In this document: positions 4,109 through 14,177 of the stretch, one piece after another
Layout of the letters: each line of letters opens with the position of its first letter
Position numbering within the stretch: the stretch's first letter is position 1
Virus record (IMG/VR): IMGVR_UViG_648861009_000003
Strand: one strand, 5' to 3'
From: a virus
Lineage: Duplodnaviria > Heunggongvirae > Uroviricota > Caudoviricetes
Length of the DNA stretch: 22,328 bases
Made by a program: the position numbers and the translations under genes
The notes under the pieces: model-generated
What the model was told of the DNA's origin: nothing
Database searches by the model: none
What the model saw: the letters and a program-made list of their open reading frames with translations, nothing else

Positions 4109-4368
4109 TTATACCTCTGAATCAATATCAACCTGGTGGTGAGCAATGGTTTCAACCATGTACCGGATGTGTTCTGCCATGCGCTCCTGAAACTCAACAT
4201 CGTCATCAAACGCACGGGTAATGGCTTTTTTGCTGGCCCCGTGGCGTTGCAAATGATCGATGCATAGCGATTCAAACAGGTGCTGGGGCAGGCCTTTTTC
4301 CATGTCGTCTGCCAGTTCTGCCTCTTTCTCTTTCACGGGTCGATCTGCTGGTAGTGACGCGCCCAGCT
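4109..4368 (-). CDS. gam: gam, 3' portion (copy A) abutting the N-gap; 5' end corrupted by indels
   Basis: Translation ...[74 protein letters not shown] matches the lambda Gam C-terminus; the last ~40 nt before the gap carry extra bases relative to copy B. Confidence 0.75.
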
Positions 4369-4814
4369 NNNNNNNNNNNNNNNNNNNNNNNNNNNNNNNN
4401 NNNNNNNNNNNNNNNNNNNNNNNNNNNNNNNNNNNNNNNNNNNNNNNNNNNNNNNNNNNNNNNNNNNNNNNNNNNNNNNNNNNNNNNNNNNNNNNNNNNN
4501 NNNNNNNNNNNNNNNNNNNNNNNNNNNNNNNNNNNNNNNNNNNNNNNNNNNNNNNNNNNNNNNNNNNNNNNNNNNNNNNNNNNNNNNNNNNNNNNNNNNN
4601 NNNNNNNNNNNNNNNNNNNNNNNNNNNNNNNNNNNNNNNNNNNNNNNNNNNNNNNNNNNNNNNNNNNNNNNNNNNNNNNNNNNNNNNNNNNNNNNNNNNN
4701 NNNNNNNNNNNNNNNNNNNNNNNNNNNNNNNNNNNNNNNNNNNNNNNNNNNNNNNNNNNNNNNNNNNNNNNNNNNNNNNNNNNNNNNNNNNNNNNNNNNN
4801 NNNNNNNNNNNNNN
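4369..4814. other. Run of 446 N (assembly/scaffold gap)
   Basis: Contiguous N characters; both flanks are copies of the same gam sequence. Confidence 0.95.
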
Positions 4815-5111
4815 CCGTTTATACCTCTGAATCAATATCAACCTGGTGTGAAGCAATGGTTTCAACCATGTACCGGATGTGTTCTGCCATGCGCTCCTGA
4901 AACTCACATCGTCATCAACGCACGGGTAATGGCTTTTTGCTGGCCCGTGGCGTTGCAAATGATCGATGCATAGCGATTCAAACAGGTGCTGGGGCAGGCC
5001 TTTTTCCATGTCGTCTGCCAGTTCTGCCTCTTTCTCTTCACGGGCGATCTGCTGGTAGTGACGCGCCCAGCTCTGAGCCTCAAGACGATCCTGAATGTAA
5101 TAAGCGTTCAT
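4815..5111 (-). CDS. gam: gam, copy B: intact start ([34 protein letters not shown]...) but 3' part frameshifted by single-base deletions near the gap
   Basis: The N-terminal 56 aa match short-form lambda Gam; downstream the sequence is the same as 4105..4368 but with at least 6 one-base deletions. No in-frame upstream ATG for a long Gam form. Confidence 0.75.
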
Positions 5112-5875: not shown

Positions 5876-6808
5876 CTATTCGATTTTTTTAACCATGTAG
5901 TTACGTCGTGATGTTCCTAATCTTTCATTGTGAATCTCAGAAACGCTTACTACGAGCGATATTCGTTCACCAACTTTATATTTACTTTGAATTTCTCCTA
6001 ACATATCAATCGGATAAGAAGCCTTTATTTTTCCAAGCTCGCTTGCAATCTCCAATTTCCCGTACATGGATAAAATAGCAAGTTCGCCTGATATATGCTC
6101 ATCCGGTAGCTGAATGACCTTCGTTAAAGCTAAGCGAGCATTCAGTTTTTTTATATCTTCTGAAGAAATTGACACTTGTCTGGTACCATCACTTAAAGGT
6201 CCAATCCAAGTAAGATCAAAGTTAAGACTATATTTTTCGCACTCATTTATGATGTTTTTTAGGTTAGCTGTTGATTGCGAACCAATTTCGGCAATTTTAG
6301 CCGTGAATGTTTCTTCATCAATGGATGAGAGTAGTGCAAAAATCTCCTTAACAGCATGACTGGATACTGTTTCGATGAGCTCGCAAGAACCAGTAGAAAA
6401 AGTAACACCTAACTTCGTCGAACCTGGACGCAAGTCTGCCAATCTCATGTCTAATGATTTTTTAACATCAATCGGCACACGACTAGAATCTTTCCCAGAT
6501 CCAAGTCGGTAAACTGCTTTCTGTACAAGGGATGCGAGATTACCTGAAATTACAGATAGAATATCTAACGGAATAGACCCGAAATCGACCAAAACACCTT
6601 TTAATCTCAACTCCATGAAATCACGTAAAGGATGTTGGTTATCGATTGCACGTTGTCTCTCTCGGAGATCGCTCAGATGGGAGTCAAGTGATCTAAATAT
6701 AATGTCATCAGCAAATGATCTCCCCTTATTTTGAGCAAGCAGATCCACATCGCGTTGAATGAACGCAATTCGCTCCTTGAGGGAGTTGAATGTTTTTTCT
6801 TCGCTCAT
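5876..6808 (-). CDS. Unknown 310-aa protein, second gene of the repressor-linked accessory operon
   Basis: Long ORF with no family recognised; start overlaps the upstream NTase-like gene by 4 nt (ATGA), implying translational coupling; contains R-x4-H (RSLDSH) and R-x5-H (RAIDNQH) strings that are too common to count as evidence of HEPN. Confidence 0.75.
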   Translation of the reverse strand: MSEEKTFNSLKERIAFIQRDVDLLAQNKGRSFADDIIFRSLDSHLSDLRERQRAIDNQHPLRDFMELRLKGVLVDFGSIPLDILSVISGNLASLVQKAVYRLGSGKDSSRVPIDVKKSLDMRLADLRPGSTKLGVTFSTGSCELIETVSSHAVKEIFALLSSIDEETFTAKIAEIGSQSTANLKNIINECEKYSLNFDLTWIGPLSDGTRQVSISSEDIKKLNARLALTKVIQLPDEHISGELAILSMYGKLEIASELGKIKASYPIDMLGEIQSKYKVGERISLVVSVSEIHNERLGTSRRNYMVKKIE

Positions 6809-7278
6809 AACATTACCCTCACGAGGCCTTTAGGATTCTCCTTCCGATCAAAACCAAACCACCCTCTCCAGTAACTTCGCCTTTCACTATAATCGATTTC
6901 TGGATGATTTTCAGGCAGCAAAAGAACGTCAATGCTGTAGTTTTCTTTAATAAAATCTCTATTTAACAATGAGCTGACCAATGGCATCAGCGTGTTTGGC
7001 AAAGAGTTTAGGGCCAAATAATCGACGACCACGAGTATATCTATGTCATCAGGTTCAGGTTTCTCTGTAGTGAATGAACCATCGATCCACACTTCAGAGA
7101 AACATAGACACTGCTGATTAACAAGTTTAAATTGCTCAATAAGCTGTATAAAATTACAGTATAGCATACTTCTTCTAACGGATTTTGGGAAGGTGTCGAC
7201 ACAAAGAGACTTGATGCCATCACTATCCATATCATGAAATCCTGCTGTAAGAAGAGGTGGGAAGCTAGGCTTTTCCAT
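6805..7278 (-). CDS. Minimal pol-beta-type nucleotidyltransferase-like protein (157 aa)
   Basis: Motif VWIDGSFTTEKPEPDDIDILVVVD fits the GS-x9-DxD signature of minimal nucleotidyltransferases, with a further acidic residue in YSIDVLLLPE; lies 81 nt downstream of the repressor gene on the same strand. Confidence 0.7.
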   Translation of the reverse strand: MEKPSFPPLLTAGFHDMDSDGIKSLCVDTFPKSVRRSMLYCNFIQLIEQFKLVNQQCLCFSEVWIDGSFTTEKPEPDDIDILVVVDYLALNSLPNTLMPLVSSLLNRDFIKENYSIDVLLLPENHPEIDYSERRSYWRGWFGFDRKENPKGLVRVML

Positions 7279-7359: not shown

Positions 7360-8049
7360 TTAACCATGCTTCCTGTACGTCTGCGGCATGCTCCCAATAA
7401 CCTTACCGAAGATGAACACCCGGTTCATCTCGTCTTTCTCGATCGGGTCCCACGGTGAGTAGCTTTTGTTATCAGAGATGACCAGCAGCTTATCCTTCAT
7501 CATTTGCAGGCGCTTTACATGGGCTGTGTCGTCGTACAGAAACGCATAGATACCATCACCGTCGAAAGATTTAACTGTGATATCAACGAACAGCAGATCA
7601 CCTGGTTCGATCGTTCCTGACATGCTGTCACCACGCACGTTAATGATGCGGATATTTTCCGCCTTCCTACCATCGAACATGTGACGAGCATCGTCAAACG
7701 AGTACTCAACCGAGCGTAGAACTTCTACAAACTCACGGTTGATGACTCCCGGCCCAGCACTGACTTCTATATCAAGAACGTCAATCTTGAAGTATTTGGA
7801 ATGGCTGACAGTTGATTGTATTGGTTGCACTGTACTGTCTGACATATTTCCAACGCCAGAAGATAACCATTCTGCGCGCACACCCAAAGCGTTCGCGATC
7901 TCCACGATTTTAGTTGTTTGATTAGCTTTCCCTGTTTCGATTTTCTGAATAGCAGCCTGGCTAACCCCGACCAAATCCCCAAGCGCCTTTTGTGTAAGGC
8001 CTCGCGCTAATCTGGCTTCTTTAAGTCTTTCTGAGAGTGTTGTTTTCAT
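7360..8049 (-). CDS. cI: CI-like prophage repressor (HTH_XRE N-terminal domain plus S24 LexA-like peptidase domain)
   Basis: Start taken at MKTTLSERLKEARLARGLTQKALGDLVGVSQAAIQKIETGK (HTH); C-terminal ...INVRGDSMSGTIEPGDLLFVD...HVKRL carries the S24 Ser/Lys autocleavage motifs; divergent from the cro-like gene. Confidence 0.9.
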   Translation of the reverse strand: MKTTLSERLKEARLARGLTQKALGDLVGVSQAAIQKIETGKANQTTKIVEIANALGVRAEWLSSGVGNMSDSTVQPIQSTVSHSKYFKIDVLDIEVSAGPGVINREFVEVLRSVEYSFDDARHMFDGRKAENIRIINVRGDSMSGTIEPGDLLFVDITVKSFDGDGIYAFLYDDTAHVKRLQMMKDKLLVISDNKSYSPWDPIEKDEMNRVFIFGKVIGSMPQTYRKHG

Positions 8050-8054
8050 AGTCC

Positions 8055-8153
8055 AAATGTACAACCAAGGTTTTATTCCATCAAACGAAAATGGTTGTTG
8101 ACTAAAAACAACCATAGTTTTAATCTTGATTCAAATTAACCACGGAGGTTGTT
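8055..8153. promoter_or_regulatory. Candidate oR/pR/pRM region between cI and cro
   Basis: Divergent intergenic region containing the inverted repeat ATGGTTGTT-N7-AACAACCAT (8091..8115) and a further ACAACCA half-site (8061..8067). Confidence 0.5.
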
Positions 8154-8453: not shown

Positions 8454-8993
8454 ATGCAACCACTTCCATACCAACAGACTAGCGGATTTAGCCCGACTGC
8501 GGTGATAAATCGTTCTCAAACAAAACAGGTGCCAGGCCACGAAAAAATCCGTGATGCCGTCCGCGCCTGGTCGGCTGTAGATAATCAGGATGTCGTTGCC
8601 ACACTCATTGTGAATGAGTATCGGGAGCAGGGCGGCGGCACCATCGATTTCCCTGATGATGTCAGCCGTGCACGCCAGAAGCTGTTCCGCTTCCTCGATA
8701 ACAAATTCGATTCTGAAAAATACCGAAATAACGTGCGTGAACTGACCCCGGCAATTCTGGCGGTACTACCGCTGGAATATCGCGGTTACCTGGTTGAGCA
8801 GGATAGCTTCATGGCTAGGTTGGCTGAAATGGAAAAGGAACTCAGTGAGGCAAAACAGGCTGTCATTCTCAACGCACCACGCCACCAGAAACTGAAGGAA
8901 ATTAGTGAAGGTATTGTATCGATGTTTCGTGTGGACCCAGATCTGGCTGGTCCATTGATGGCGATGGTTACTACCATGCTGGGGGCGATATGA
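8454..8993 (+). CDS. YdaT-like protein in the cII position
   Basis: 179 aa; segments EYREQGGGTIDFPDD and LTPAILAVLPLEYRGYL resemble the Rac YdaT family as I recall it; located between cro and O. Confidence 0.65.
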   Translation: MQPLPYQQTSGFSPTAVINRSQTKQVPGHEKIRDAVRAWSAVDNQDVVATLIVNEYREQGGGTIDFPDDVSRARQKLFRFLDNKFDSEKYRNNVRELTPAILAVLPLEYRGYLVEQDSFMARLAEMEKELSEAKQAVILNAPRHQKLKEISEGIVSMFRVDPDLAGPLMAMVTTMLGAI

Positions 8994-9079
8994 CAGGTTC
9001 AGAAATGGCGAAAGCCGGTCTGCTGGAACAGAACCGACTTTCAGGTGCAAATCGTAACACACTCATTGCGGGAGGAATT

Positions 9080-10009
9080 ATGGCAAACACTGCTGAGATA
9101 TTCAATTTTCCAGTGCCGGATGCGGCACAAAAGGAGCCGCGCGTGGCAGATCTCGATGATGGTTATACGCGCATTGCAAATGAGTTGCTGGAAGCTGTGA
9201 TGCTGGCCGGATTAACACAGCACCAGCTTCTGGTCTTCCTGGCTGTCATGCGCAAAACATATGGCTTTAATAAAAAACTGGATTGGGTGAGCAACGAGCA
9301 ACTTTCCGAATTGACCGGGATATTGCCGCACAAGTGTTCTGCTGCAAAAAGCGTTCTGGTAAAGCGTGGGATTCTTATTCAGAGCGGGCGGAATATCGGC
9401 ATTAATAATGTGGTCAGTGAATGGTCAACATTACCCGAATCAGGTAAGAAAAATAAAGTTTACCTGAAAGAGGTAAATTTACCTGAATCAGGTAAGAAAA
9501 GTTTACCCAAATCAGGTAAAGGCGTTTACCCGAATCAGGTAAACACAAAAGACAAACTAACAAAAGACAATATAAAACCTTTTTCGTCCGAGAATTCTGG
9601 CGAATCCTCTGACCAGCCAGAAAACGATCTTCCTGTGGTGAAACCGGATGCTGCAATTCAGAGCGGCAGCAAGTGGGGGACAGCAGAAGACCTGACCGCC
9701 GCAGAGTGGATGTTTGACATGGTGAAGACTATCGCACCATCAGCCAGAAAACCGAATTTTGCTGGGTGGGCTAACGATATCCGCCTGATGCGTGAACGTG
9801 ACGGACGTAACCACCGCGACATGTGCGTGCTGTTCCGCTGGGCCTGCCAGGACAACTTCTGGTCCGGTAACGTGCTGAGTCCGGCCAAACTCCGCGACAA
9901 GTGGACCCAGCTCGAAATCAACCGGAACAAGCAACAGGCTGGCGTGACAGTCGGCAAACCAAAACTCGACCTGACAAACACTGACTGGATTTACGGGGTG
10001 GATCTATGA
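9080..10009 (+). CDS. O: Replication initiator O (chimeric: divergent N-terminal iteron-binding domain, lambda-like C-terminal domain)
   Basis: Start taken at MANTAEIFNF (GGAGG SD) by analogy to lambda O MTNTAKILNF; the C-terminal ~150 aa (SENSGESSDQPENDL...WTQLEINRNKQQAGV...DWIYGVDL) match lambda O; iterons lie inside the gene. Confidence 0.9.
   Translation: MANTAEIFNFPVPDAAQKEPRVADLDDGYTRIANELLEAVMLAGLTQHQLLVFLAVMRKTYGFNKKLDWVSNEQLSELTGILPHKCSAAKSVLVKRGILIQSGRNIGINNVVSEWSTLPESGKKNKVYLKEVNLPESGKKSLPKSGKGVYPNQVNTKDKLTKDNIKPFSSENSGESSDQPENDLPVVKPDAAIQSGSKWGTAEDLTAAEWMFDMVKTIAPSARKPNFAGWANDIRLMRERDGRNHRDMCVLFRWACQDNFWSGNVLSPAKLRDKWTQLEINRNKQQAGVTVGKPKLDLTNTDWIYGVDL
9431..9585. repeat. Replication origin: five 17-bp iterons plus an A-rich region inside O
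   Basis: ttacccgaatcaggtaa (9431), ttacctgaaagaggtaa (9459), ttacctgaatcaggtaa (9479), ttacccaaatcaggtaa (9503), ttacccgaatcaggtaa (9526), followed by acacaaaagacaaactaacaaaagacaatataaaacc. Confidence 0.8.
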
Positions 10010-10707
10010 AAAACATCGCCGCACAGATGGTTAACTTTGACCGTGAGCAGATGCGTCGGATCGCCAACAACATGCCGGAACAGTATGACGAAAAGCCACA
10101 GGTACAGCAGGTAGCGCAGATCATCAACGGTGTGTTCAGCCAGTTACTGGCAACTTTCCCGGCGAGCCTGGCTAATCGTGAGCAGAACGAACTGAACGAA
10201 ATCCGCCGCCAGTGGGTTCTGGCTTTCCGGGAAAACGGGATCACCACGATGGAACAGGTTAACGCAGGAATGCGCGTAGCCCGTCGGCAGAATCGACCAT
10301 TCCTGCCATCCCCCGGACAGTTTGTAGCCTGGTGCCGGGAAGAAGCATCCGTTATTGCCGGACTACCAAACACCAGCGAGCTGGTTGATATGGTTTACGA
10401 GTATTGCCGGAAGCGTGGCCTGTATCCGGATGCAGAGTCTTATCCGTGGAAATCAAACGCGCACTACTGGCTGGTTACCAACCTGTATCAGAACATGCGG
10501 GCCAATGCGCTTACTGATGCGGAATTACGGCGCAAGGCTGCCGATGAACTGACTTGTATGACCGCGCGAATTAACCGTGGTGAGGCGATACCTGAACCAG
10601 TAAAACAACTTCCTGTCATGGGCGGTAGACCTCTAAATCGTGCACAGGCTCTGGCGAAGATCGCAGAAATCAAAGCGAAGTTCGGACTGAAAGGAGCAAC
10701 TGTATGA
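10006..10707 (+). CDS. P: Replication protein P (DnaB helicase loader)
   Basis: 233-aa translation MKNIAAQMVNFDREQMRRIANNMPEQYDEKPQVQQVAQIINGVFSQLL... is near-identical to lambda P. Confidence 0.96.
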   Translation: MKNIAAQMVNFDREQMRRIANNMPEQYDEKPQVQQVAQIINGVFSQLLATFPASLANREQNELNEIRRQWVLAFRENGITTMEQVNAGMRVARRQNRPFLPSPGQFVAWCREEASVIAGLPNTSELVDMVYEYCRKRGLYPDAESYPWKSNAHYWLVTNLYQNMRANALTDAELRRKAADELTCMTARINRGEAIPEPVKQLPVMGGRPLNRAQALAKIAEIKAKFGLKGATV

Positions 10708-11006
10708 CGGGCAAAGAGGCAATTATTCATTACCTGGGGACGCATAAGAGCTTCTGTGCGCAGGACGTTGCTGCGGTAACAGGCGCAACAGTAACCAGTA
10801 TAAATCAGGCTGCGGCTAAAATGGCACGGGCAGGAATCTTGGTCGTTGATGGTAAGGTCTGGCGAACGGTGTATTACCGGTTCGCTACCAGGGAAGAACG
10901 GGAAGGAAAGGTGAGCACGAATCTGATTTTCAAGGAGTGTCGCCAGAGTGCCGCGATGAAACGAGTGTTGGCAGTGTATGGAGATATGAACTTAAACTTG
11001 CTGTGA
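10704..11006 (+). CDS. ren: Ren (Rex-exclusion protein) with a divergent C-terminus
   Basis: MTGKEAIIHYLGTHKSFCAQDVAAVTGATVTSINQAAAKMARAGILVVDGKVWRTVYYRFATREEREGK... matches lambda Ren except for the last ~8 residues. Confidence 0.9.
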   Translation: MTGKEAIIHYLGTHKSFCAQDVAAVTGATVTSINQAAAKMARAGILVVDGKVWRTVYYRFATREEREGKVSTNLIFKECRQSAAMKRVLAVYGDMNLNLL

Positions 11007-11254
11007 CGGTTTTCATCGGTAACACACCATGTAATCTAGCAGTCAGCTTAGAAATAGGAGCGGCAGTTAAAGATTTTTCAGTTAGTAGAAAATTACTGTT
11101 ATTGCAGGGATCTAATCACCGGAGAGTCGTTCCATTTGTCTTATGATTACCTGAAGTCCGTTAGTTCGTTGGTAATCACCGTTTTTGTTAGAGAAGTAAG
11201 CATCGCTGACAAAATATTCTCAACGATGCCTGCTTTATTGCTACTACAAATTAA

Positions 11255-12756
11255 TTAAATTGCATCTGCAAACTCTGGGGTTTTTCGCTCAGGTATAATT
11301 GATGAGTTGCTGTTGTCACTTTTTTTATTTTCATGATTACGAATAGCCAATGACTCATTAAAGTCTTTTGCGACTGCTGTCTCAATAAATTCAATTTCTG
11401 AATCAGAGTGTTTTTTAACAGCTTCTTTGATCTCATCCAGAGTAACATAGAAAAACTCTTTTCTACGATTTACAAGATTGACTCTCTTTTTATCGAAGAC
11501 ATCATGTAGTTTTTTTCTAATGATGGAGCGTCCTCCGAATAAATCATGGCATGTACATCAAAAATAAAAGGAACAGATGCATCACCGAGCTCATTTACAC
11601 GGTCTTGCGGATCAAGACGTCGTGTCATGCCTATTTTATAAACATTCTCCCCAAAAGAACCTATGTTCGAAATAATATAAACATGACCTTGTTTGGTTTG
11701 TTGTGCCATGGATAATGCTCTTTGATGCTTTGATTCAGCCTGCGACAAACTCTGTTCTAGTTCGGCAATGCGATTTTCGAGGCGCTGCTTCATGTCACCA
11801 GTAACTTTTTCCATTTCCTTTCTTGCAGCTTCAATTGCTTTTTTATAACGGCGCTCTTCTGCCTCTGCGTCTTGCATGGCCTTTTCTATTTCTCGTTGTG
11901 CACGCTCCTCCTCTCTCATTTGTGCCCTTATTTCTGCCTGTTCTTCTTTTTCTTTCTGTTTTTGCTCACGATATTCATGGGTAAGCCACAATTCCTCAAG
12001 TTTTTTATTGAGGTATTTAGTGTTTATATATATGTGATTTTGCTCGTTTAGTTTATTTATGGCCTCAAATGCCTTTGTGATGCGTTCTTCCATTTTAGTG
12101 ATGTTTTTCCACGTGCAATTGCTAATTGCAGCATCACATTCATTATTAAATGCTCTAGTAGTTAGCCTGATATTTCTGTCTGTCATTTTTTTACCCTCTG
12201 CTCGAGAGCCTTCAACAGTCCATTGGGTTGTACAATATACTGCGCCAGAGTGGGTTTTATCCCGCAGCATTAATTTCTGTTCATCCCTGATGGATTTTAT
12301 TTTGTTTTTAAATTGCTCTGAATCTTCAAAATTAAAATGAGGTTCGTAAAATCCTAGTTCGGCTAGCTCAACATCTTCTGAATAAATAGAAATTTGCCTT
12401 ACTAGTTTATCATATATTTCTTTCTTCTCTTTATAAGTTCTTCTTAGCTCTTGGATTTGTTTATTGATACCATCCATTTTTTCAATGGTGTTTGTTAGTT
12501 CATTATTGGCATTTTCTTTTACTTTTAGGGATTCTTCTTTTATTATGGAGCATTCTTGCTCTGTTTTCTCAATAAGCTTCTTACATTCTTCTTCTACATT
12601 AAAATAATCTGCAAAGCGAGATTTGTATTCTTCATTTTTTTGATTGCTATCACTTAATTCTAATTGTATTTTTTTGATGCGTTTGATTGCAGCTATATAA
12701 AGAACAAGAACAACCAATAAAAATATGATTGCAAGTAATAGAGGAGTTTGAGTCAT
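11255..12756 (-). CDS. DUF4041/T5orf172 (GIY-YIG-like)-family protein with N-terminal TM helix and long coiled-coil; reading frame broken at a T7 homopolymer (11510..11516)
   Basis: The 428-aa ORF (11470..12756) contains GHVYIISNIGSFGENVYKIGMTRRLDPQDRVNELGDASVPFIFDVHAMIYSEDAPSL; the family-typical C-terminus LHDVFDKKRVNLVNRRKEFFYVTLDEIKEAVKKH... continues in the -1 frame to a stop at 11255. N-terminus LLLAIIFLLVVLVLYIAAI is hydrophobic; the gene is strongly AT-rich. Confidence 0.75.
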
Positions 12757-13246: not shown

Positions 13247-13568
13247 TTGTAACTGTTGTAGCAGCTATGGATGTGATCATCATGGTGTCCATTTACTGGG
13301 GTTGACGACATGATTTATCCGGCGCTATATTCTGTGCGTTGCCGCAAAATCGGCACACGGGATTGGCGTCCCGGGATACTACTCAACGCATACCGCGTTA
13401 AGCGGTTTTTTTGTGCGCTAAGCACGGCTATGCCCAAATTATGGTGGGCTGTGTGAGGGCTTCTTCGGAAGCGCCGGGTTTGAGTAGCCGGTTACGCCAA
13501 CCTTACACAGTTCACCACCAGTCGATTGGCGTCGTTGGTGGTGATGGTTAACCTGATGAGGTGATACT

Positions 13569-14177
13569 ATGACTACTCAATTAGCATTCCACAAAACGAC
13601 GTTTACCCCGATTTGCCACAATAACAGAATTTGGCTTACTGCCACTGAAGTTGGTTTAGCACTGGAATATGCGGACGATAAAGCAGTTCAGCGCATTTAC
13701 TCTCGGCACTCAGATGAATTCACAGATATGATGACAAGGGTGGTCAAAGTGACCACCCCTCGTGGAATGCAGGAGTCTCGAGTATTTAGCCTTCGCGGAG
13801 CCCATTTGATCGCCATGTTTGCTCGTACTCCTGTGGCCAAAGAATTCCGCCGCTGGGTTCTGGATATTCTCGATCGAGAAGTTCAACAATCCCCAATCAC
13901 AAAACAATTCACTGATAACGAACTTTGCACACTCGCCTGGTTATGGCGAGCAAGTGATACGATGTTAACCGCCTGCCAGAACGTTACGCCCCTTCTTCAG
14001 GTCGCAGAGCATCGCGAAGCAGGTAGATTCACTTCAATCGAACAAGAATATCCTCGGATACTCAACAGGGCGCGAGAAATCCTTGCCAGAGAAACGGCGC
14101 ATGTAAAATTCCAACCGTGGCAGGATGATAAGTGGAGTCGTGTGTTACCATATTTCCGTCAGAATCTGTTGCAATAA
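13569..14177 (+). CDS. Bro-N / P22 AR N-terminal domain protein (Roi/antirepressor-like)
   Basis: 202 aa; N-terminal IWLTATEVGLALEYADDKAVQRIYSRH...SRVFSLRGAHLIAMFARTPVAKEFRRWVLDIL fits the Bro-N/AntA-type domain pattern. Confidence 0.75.
   Translation: MTTQLAFHKTTFTPICHNNRIWLTATEVGLALEYADDKAVQRIYSRHSDEFTDMMTRVVKVTTPRGMQESRVFSLRGAHLIAMFARTPVAKEFRRWVLDILDREVQQSPITKQFTDNELCTLAWLWRASDTMLTACQNVTPLLQVAEHREAGRFTSIEQEYPRILNRAREILARETAHVKFQPWQDDKWSRVLPYFRQNLLQ

Follow-up and report, generated by a model that had tools for sequence, protein, structure and literature searches.

A lambdoid replication gene O combining a lambda-type C-terminal half with a non-lambda origin-binding domain and iteron set in a DLP12-type prophage

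The O gene and its prophage surroundings

The stretch of DNA analysed here (the window; 22,328 nucleotides) is an intact DLP12-type prophage at tRNA-Arg. It is 99.6–99.9% identical to a prophage of Escherichia coli 118UI, the O region being 100% identical; the 118UI prophage adjoins tRNA-Arg and intD and carries ybcN, ninE, ybcO, rusA, ylcG, quuD, a porin gene, essD and rrrD, i.e. the gene set and the locus of DLP12. Upstream of O lie a YdaS/Cro-like gene and a YdaT-family gene, and the region as a whole presents the following features:

5876–6808 and 6805–7278, minus strand: PDC-M63B and PDC-M63A, candidate defence pair (DUF6932; E 4e-42 and 7e-43)
7360–8115, minus strand: S24/HTH cI-type repressor gene, upstream of O
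8454–8993, plus strand: YdaT-family ORF (Pfam "YdaT toxin"; 66% identical to phi80 CII)
9043–9011, minus strand: strong hairpin in the cII–O spacer (86-nt fold of -25.6 kcal/mol, z -2.5)
9105–9077, minus strand: sigma-70-like promoter, TTGAAT-17-CATAAT with TG, overlapping the start codon of O in the manner of lambda pO
9080–10009, plus strand: O gene, replication initiator with the origin inside (ORF, Shine–Dalgarno sequence, Pfam Phage_rep_O, phage annotations)
9140–9424, plus strand: coding region of the Phage_rep_O origin-binding domain (aa 21–115), a non-lambda allele (Pfam, identities to relatives)
9581–10009, plus strand: coding region of the lambda-type C-terminal domain (aa 168–309)
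10006–10707, plus strand: P gene, helicase loader (Pfam Phage_lambda_P, E 2e-61)
10704–11006, plus strand: ren-like gene, its last residues differing from lambda Ren
11470–12756, minus strand: homologue of the anti-phage defence protein PD-Lambda-1 (PADLOC E 8e-169; Pfam DUF4041 and partial MUG113/T5orf172)
13340–13412 and 13437–13522, plus strand: isrK and C4 antisense RNA in tandem (Rfam 58.7 and 74.8 bits)
13569–14177, plus strand: Bro-N/P22AR_C antirepressor-like gene, just downstream of the two RNAs

The O reading frame extends from the ATG at 9080, with a GGGAGG Shine–Dalgarno sequence just 5' of it, to the stop at 10009, thus encoding 309 residues, of which residues 21–115 match the Pfam family Phage_rep_O (PF04492; E 1.4e-34, 118.9 bits, cutoff 28.7). 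The P start overlaps the O stop (ATGA). Position 9080 is regarded as the conserved start because the homologues from lambda, phi80, SEN34, the Klebsiella phage GZ7 and Enterobacter all begin at M(A/T/S)NTA(E/K). A longer form starting at 8990, annotated by PGAP in E. coli 118UI, was rejected: the homologues begin at the equivalent of 9080 and the upstream frame is closed in several of them. With its Phage_rep_O domain, iterons, A-rich block, and lambda-type C-domain together with P, the O gene is an ordinary lambdoid initiator with its own replication origin inside.

Several further observations concern the neighbouring genes. The phi80 CII protein itself matches the Pfam family "YdaT toxin", and the ORF at 8454–8993 is annotated as "activator protein cII" in phage D2; in this context it is most likely a CII-type regulator rather than a toxin. 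The minus-strand promoter and the hairpin match, in position and layout, the lambda oop RNA and the phi80 M3 RNA, the latter annotated at the same place (JX871397); a terminator scan called no canonical terminator near the O start, the hairpin at 9043–9011 included, and its U-tail is weak. The PDC-M63B/PDC-M63A pair lies directly downstream of cI in the same orientation, i.e. in the slot of rexA/rexB of lambda. The PD-Lambda-1 homologue, situated just past ren on the opposite strand in the place of lambda ninB, with a remnant ORF at 11251–11448 (minus strand), matches only 416 of the roughly 491 positions of the profile. In E. coli 118UI the coding sequence has 500 residues, and relative to it a single base is missing from the window at 11509; this shifts the frame, and the gene is either a pseudogene or the product of a sequencing error. 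The layout of isrK, C4 and the antirepressor-like gene looks like the IsrK/anti-repressor arrangement of Gifsy-type prophages. Finally, the comparison with 118UI reveals a cluster of single-base indels at 4817–4943 and a non-matching segment at 4368–4815; the Gam domain belongs to a 279-residue ORF (4272–5111) in the window, whereas the gam product of 118UI has 98 residues. The differences over 4368–4943 have the look of noise from sequencing or assembly, or of a minor rearrangement.

Iterons, the A-rich block and the joint inside O

The origin features are located inside O, the iterons following the N-terminal domain, as listed below; column identities refer to the alignment of the origin in 11 alleles from seven genera (E. 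coli, Klebsiella, Enterobacter, Pseudocitrobacter, Xenorhabdus, Pantoea and Providencia, with Arsenophonus left out):

9431–9447, unstranded: iteron 1, TTACCCGAATCAGGTAA, matching the consensus exactly, within 30 bp inserted relative to lambda; 62% column identity
9460–9476, unstranded: iteron 2, TTACCTGAAAGAGGTAA, two central mismatches with the arms intact, aligned with lambda iteron 1; 92.5% column identity
9479–9495, unstranded: iteron 3, TTACCTGAATCAGGTAA, perfect palindrome; 97.9% column identity
9503–9519, unstranded: iteron 4, TTACCCAAATCAGGTAA, one mismatch; 97.9% column identity
9526–9542, unstranded: iteron 5, TTACCCGAATCAGGTAA, adjoining the A-rich block; 96.8% column identity
9543–9585, plus strand: A-rich, strand-asymmetric block, presumed DNA-unwinding element (composition; 92% column identity)
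9543–9589, unstranded: recombination-joint zone (lambda identity rises; GZ7 identity ends at 9573; misc_recomb features in lambda)

The five 17-bp repeats of TTACCYGAATCAGGTAA, starting at 9431, 9460, 9479, 9503 and 9526, deviate from this consensus by 0, 2, 0, 1 and 0 positions, respectively. The first-pass annotation, made from the letters of the window, had described five matching copies; five are indeed present, although only three of them fit its consensus exactly. Since the unit is palindromic, both strands match, giving 10 strand-matches against 0.05 expected by chance, a number reached by none of 100 shuffled sequences. Iteron 3 is a perfect 8+1+8 palindrome, the other copies being symmetric at 6–7 of the 8 arm positions. 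The iterons begin 29, 19, 24 and 23 bp apart, the four of lambda 20, 24 and 23 bp apart, and iterons 2–5 align over lambda iterons 1–4; the 30-bp insertion that holds iteron 1 makes O ten residues longer than lambda O. The A-rich region that had been noticed after the iterons is there as described, consisting on the plus strand of 56% A, 19% T and 5% G (the lambda block has 57% A); it is common to all O alleles compared and recognisable also in lambda and SEN34, its role in unwinding being presumed.

The stretch of O encoded by the iterons and the A-rich block (residues 117–190) is rich in K, S, P, N, E and G. The AlphaFold2 single-sequence model of O is of low confidence (mean pLDDT 41, pTM 0.26) and hints at helices in residues 25–95 and 202–286 with nothing between them; a sequence search of the PDB returned no O relative with a solved structure. 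As modelled, residues 117–190 would fit a flexible linker tolerating both a constraint at the DNA level and changes in copy number.

Concerning the conservation of the individual iterons, the mean column identity amounts to 92–98% for iterons 2–5 and 92% for the A-rich block, in contrast to 58–84% for the spacers between iterons, 58% for the sequence past the A-rich block and 62% for iteron 1. The Xenorhabdus, Pantoea and Providencia alleles lack the last-mentioned copy, and in those of Klebsiella, Enterobacter and Pseudocitrobacter it is degenerate. In this alignment, four iterons appear as the conserved core, with iteron 1 as a lineage-specific extra; five functional iterons are not established because iteron 1 is not conserved in the relatives. 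The chances are about even that the working origin consists of four copies (2–5), as in lambda, copy 1 having arisen by recent duplication in this lineage and playing an auxiliary part at most. Its place in an insertion and its poor conservation speak for this, as does the weak binding of the extra distal iterons of Stx phages (PMC7466680); yet copy 1 of the window is an exact consensus identical to copy 5, the weakly bound extra iterons of Stx phage P27 are still required for plasmid replication (PMC7466680), and the seven copies found in Arsenophonus indicate that the iteron number is flexible.

The two halves of O differ strongly in their relation to lambda. The N-terminal half is divergent, as had been claimed: the N-domain shares 56 of 116 residues (48%) with lambda O and is 36% identical to that of phi80, while reaching 84.5–87% with GZ7. 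The C-terminal 142 residues are identical to lambda O at 138 positions (97%), so that "lambda-identical", the wording of the first-pass annotation, slightly overstates a near-identity. Its description of P and ren as essentially lambda holds for P (226/233, 97%) but less so for ren, where 85 of 96 residues (88.5%) agree and the C-terminal tail is unrelated, since the lambda-like patch extends only to about 10980. At the nucleotide level, O from 9586 to its stop is 96.9% and P 95% identical to lambda. Identity to lambda is 40–60% up to the last iteron, 74–86% in the A-rich block and 94–100% from 9590 onwards. A maximum chi-square scan places the breakpoint at 9543: the sequence is 49.9% identical to lambda before this position and 95.1% identical after it, and none of 300 permutations reached the observed value, which bears out the joint proposed to lie within O; mismatches are no longer dense beyond 9589, and positions 9633–9825 form a run of 193 bp identical to lambda. 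It should be noted that the lambda record itself carries misc_recomb features at 39157/8 and 39165/6, i.e. at the position equivalent to this joint. Left of about 9543, the sequence is unrelated or only distantly related to lambda throughout; this part comprises a cII/YdaT gene like that of phi80, the N-domain of O and the iterons. The part from about 9590 to about 10980, covering the O C-domain, P and most of ren, is 95–97% lambda. The alignments with the O genes of lambda, 21 and phi80 that had been suggested as a check gave the same breakpoint picture with phage 21, which has a lambda-type O and lambda-type iterons, as with lambda, whereas phi80 differs throughout.

O thus has two histories, which supports the intragenic mosaicism proposed earlier, yet the gene is chimeric only relative to lambda and the direction of the exchange is not inferable. 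That lambda is the recombinant, and that the combination of a TTACC-type N-domain with a lambda-type C-domain is the older one, may be given somewhat less than even odds. The full-length allele of the window occurs in 2368 of the 3290 E. coli genomes with a lambda-type O C-terminus, thus being the commoner combination, and the lambda-type C-module is joined to at least four N-domain/iteron types; abundance, however, says nothing about direction.

Two other explanations fare much worse. A peptide repeat in the linker, with selection on LPESGK-like motifs instead of protein-binding DNA sites, would account for the three copies translated as LPESGK or LPKSGK, but it is very improbable, since the five copies lie in frames 0, 2, 0, 0 and 2, so that the two others read VYLKEVN and VYPNQVN (the peptides being of the LPESGK and VYxxxVN types) and the repeated entity is the DNA, every copy is palindromic as DNA, conservation across seven genera extends to all three codon positions while the spacers drift, and the position, the spacing of copies 2–5 and the adjoining A-rich block match those of ori-lambda. 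Divergence from lambda O uniform in time, with stronger purifying selection on a C-terminal half that must plausibly keep contact with a conserved P, deserves hardly any credence: four-fold degenerate sites differ from lambda at 18 of 24 positions (75%) in the N-half, against 5 of 65 (8%) in the C-half and 16 of 111 (14%) in P, a run of 193 bp shows no difference at all, and the same N-module is linked to unrelated C-termini in other phages. The synonymous-site contrast refutes the uniform-divergence reading, which had been named beforehand as the outcome that would overturn the proposal and was not seen; because these sites are saturated left of the joint and nearly unchanged right of it, recombination and not unequal constraint is the cause.

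Module exchange among relatives and proposed working of the origin

Annotated phages and a single genome of each species supplied the relatives. Nine O genes have a TTACC-type N-domain at 63–95% identity, originating from E. coli, Klebsiella (two), Enterobacter, Xenorhabdus, Pantoea (two), Providencia and Arsenophonus, and all nine contain TTACC..GGTAA iterons in four to seven copies, seven being found in Arsenophonus. The clusters of N-domains and those of C-domains are discordant. The TTACC-type N-domain is combined with the lambda-type C-domain and P in the window and in Pantoea (L011); with a second C-type and DnaC/IstB-like loaders in GZ7, L005 and L010; with a third C-type and Toprim-DnaB proteins in L013 and L014; and with a singleton C-terminus of unknown partner in L008. 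Conversely, the lambda-type C-domain with P goes with at least four iteron types, namely that of lambda and 21, TTCCCGAAAACGGGAA of phi80, TTAGC..GCTAA of SEN34 and TTACC..GGTAA of the window. Every O gene sampled appears to be one combination of an N-module and a C-module. The comparison supports the view that the N-half with the iterons would set the origin specificity and the C-half the partner, in line with the earlier proposal that the window had kept the P-interaction half of lambda while changing its origin specificity. An exception to the rule linking C-domain and partner is the Arsenophonus gene (L015), the C-terminus of which is 23–30% identical to the DnaC-associated type but is followed by a gene of the Phage_lambda_P family.

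Some matches fall outside these combinations. An O homologue from Enterobacter sichuanensis (L007, 2501–3622) contains a T5orf172 (GIY-YIG-like) domain in frame (aa 134–216), inserted between the Phage_rep_O domain and the linker, with a switch of sequence from about residue 78; TTACC-type iterons were not found in this homologue. The match of phage D2 (OM475427.1) to the O gene of the window extends only up to nucleotide 246, its O being annotated as two coding sequences, while two E. coli matches (H145 and H146; O157:H7 ATCC 35150 and X14-3) begin only at nucleotide 142 or 159. These partial matches suggest that crossovers have also taken place within the N-domain, close to the conserved VADLDDGY block. 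Matches in assemblies of Bradyrhizobium, Shewanella, Pseudomonas, Neobacillus, Oceanobacillus, Ruminococcus and others (L022–L036) lie on short, mostly low-coverage contigs (about 0.3–48 kb) and are at exactly the level of lambda (48–49% over the N-domain, with the same E-value); they are almost certainly contaminations with lambda control DNA.

The reading preferred here, with a probability of about 0.9, is that the window contains the replication module of a DLP12-type lambdoid prophage, mosaic in its make-up, working in the manner of lambda and differing from it in origin specificity. By analogy with lambda biochemistry, from which O–iteron binding, unwinding and the O–P contact are inferred, the Phage_rep_O domain would bind, as dimers, the palindromic iterons inside the O gene, which at the same time would encode the low-complexity linker between the two domains of O; the resulting nucleoprotein complex would distort the DNA and open the adjacent A-rich block, and the lambda-type C-domain would recruit P, which in turn would deliver the host DnaB. 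According to PMC4488673, with reference to Furth et al. (1978) and Furth & Yates (1978), O binds its iterons through the amino-terminal half. The entire sequence of events, from O dimers on the iterons and A-rich opening to the recruitment of P–DnaB by the C-half, is described for lambda in PMC4488673, PMC7466680 and PMC6022878 and in the classical papers cited there.

Being conserved in all O alleles compared, the A-rich block offers homology for exchange between dissimilar replication modules. It is conceivable, though less likely than not, that the TTACC..GGTAA N-domain/iteron cassette is a module of origin specificity with unusual promiscuity. It occurs in at least seven genera of Enterobacterales, and its junction with the helicase-recruitment module, of which there are at least four unrelated kinds (P, DnaC-like, primase-helicase, unknown), would always lie in the A-rich unwinding block, which would double as the universal recombination linker of lambdoid replication modules. 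If that were true, the natural variants would form a set of domain swaps with which O C-termini could be matched to the loaders that they recruit.

With regard to distribution, the same full-length O allele (97.5–98.3% identity) is annotated as "DNA replication protein O" in 15 deposited phages, among them 4A7, Lambda_4C10, 1W, 3W, Perceval and the PhiR series. It is found in 2368 of 5426 complete E. coli genomes (about 44%), a lambda-type C-terminus being present in 3290, so that it is the majority partner of that C-terminus in E. coli. In view of this frequency, the O/ori type of the window is probably the commonest among E. coli prophages and hence a reasonable reference allele. No open-access paper containing the iteron string of the window was found, and iterons are not among the listed features in any phage record with the same allele; the TTACC..GGTAA type may so far have gone without an explicit description, or it may correspond to the old ori82.

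As for its meaning, the analysis places the origin of this prophage at 9431–9585, its predicted specificity being unlike that of lambda, 21, 434 and phi80 and its O–P interface being apparently that of lambda. From these two properties it is predicted that the prophage would neither be inhibited by nor compete with ori-lambda plasmids, and that P and the O C-domain would be interchangeable with those of lambda. The mosaic had been called a clean example; it is real, but the pattern is classical for lambdoid O genes and represents no new type of example, i.e. it is an already known, textbook feature in a very common allele. The significance beyond annotation is small: the comparative set illustrates modular evolution and changes no concept.

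Comparison with known replication systems

The origin of the window could simply be ori82: DLP12 resembles phage 82, and the rusA/quuD/DLP12-type late region of the prophage serves as a lead, but no more, in this direction. The 16 near-identical records of the phage collection included no replication-region sequence of phage 82.

Among the homologues with the same N-domain, those of GZ7, Enterobacter, Xenorhabdus and other prophages have the A-rich block and, in corresponding places, TTACC..GGTAA iterons numbering five or four. GZ7 differs in its unrelated C-domain, followed by a DnaC/IstB-like loader instead of P, and its homology to the window stops at 9573. The family of P22 gene 18 and HK97 O shares the Phage_rep_O N-domain, P22 gp18 being 66% identical over residues 19–115, and has its own intragenic repeats (PMC8022706); its iterons and C-terminus are different, however, and its partner is a DnaB-type helicase (gp12), not P. 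That different O homologues carry different intragenic iterons is known (PMC8022706).

The system of phi80 is different throughout, with iterons of the type TTCCCGAAAACGGGAA, an N-domain 36% and a C-domain 47% identical, and the window therefore falls outside the specificity group of phi80 gp15, which differs in both N-domain and iterons. The O proteins of the Stx phages 933W and P27 belong to a lambda-like origin with six iterons, the extra distal copies of which lengthen the O linker; the iteron number varies in these phages and the distal copies are weakly bound (PMC7466680). They differ from the window in having iterons of lambda specificity and a lambda-type N-domain, 47.8% identical to that of the window.

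There is a close likeness to O, ori-lambda and P of lambda itself: the gene order cII–O–P–ren, the Phage_rep_O N-domain, the origin at the same place in O, the palindromic iterons with matching spacing, the A-rich block, and the C-domain and P, both 97% identical, are all shared. Lambda has, however, four copies of TCCCTCAAAACGAGGGA against the five copies of TTACCYGAATCAGGTAA in the window, and upstream of O it carries lambda cII, whereas the window carries a phi80-type CII gene of the YdaT family. The suggested iteron comparison confirms a type distinct from that of lambda and 21 as well as from that of phi80; phages 21 and 434 have lambda-type O and iterons, and the window, with its own iterons and an N-domain 48% identical, stands outside the ori-lambda specificity group (lambda, 21, 434 and 933W). 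A two-domain, hybrid-tolerant O with allele-specific iterons was established in 1978–79 (Furth & Yates 1978; Moore et al. 1979), as cited in PMC6022878, PMC4488673 and PMC3349717, and both the two-domain O and the allele-specific iterons have been restated in recent genome papers (PMC8022706). The lambdoid O hybrids of 1979, which PMC3349717 cites as functional products of crossovers inside O, follow the same principle as the gene described here, with the N-half and the iterons giving the specificity and the C-half working with P.
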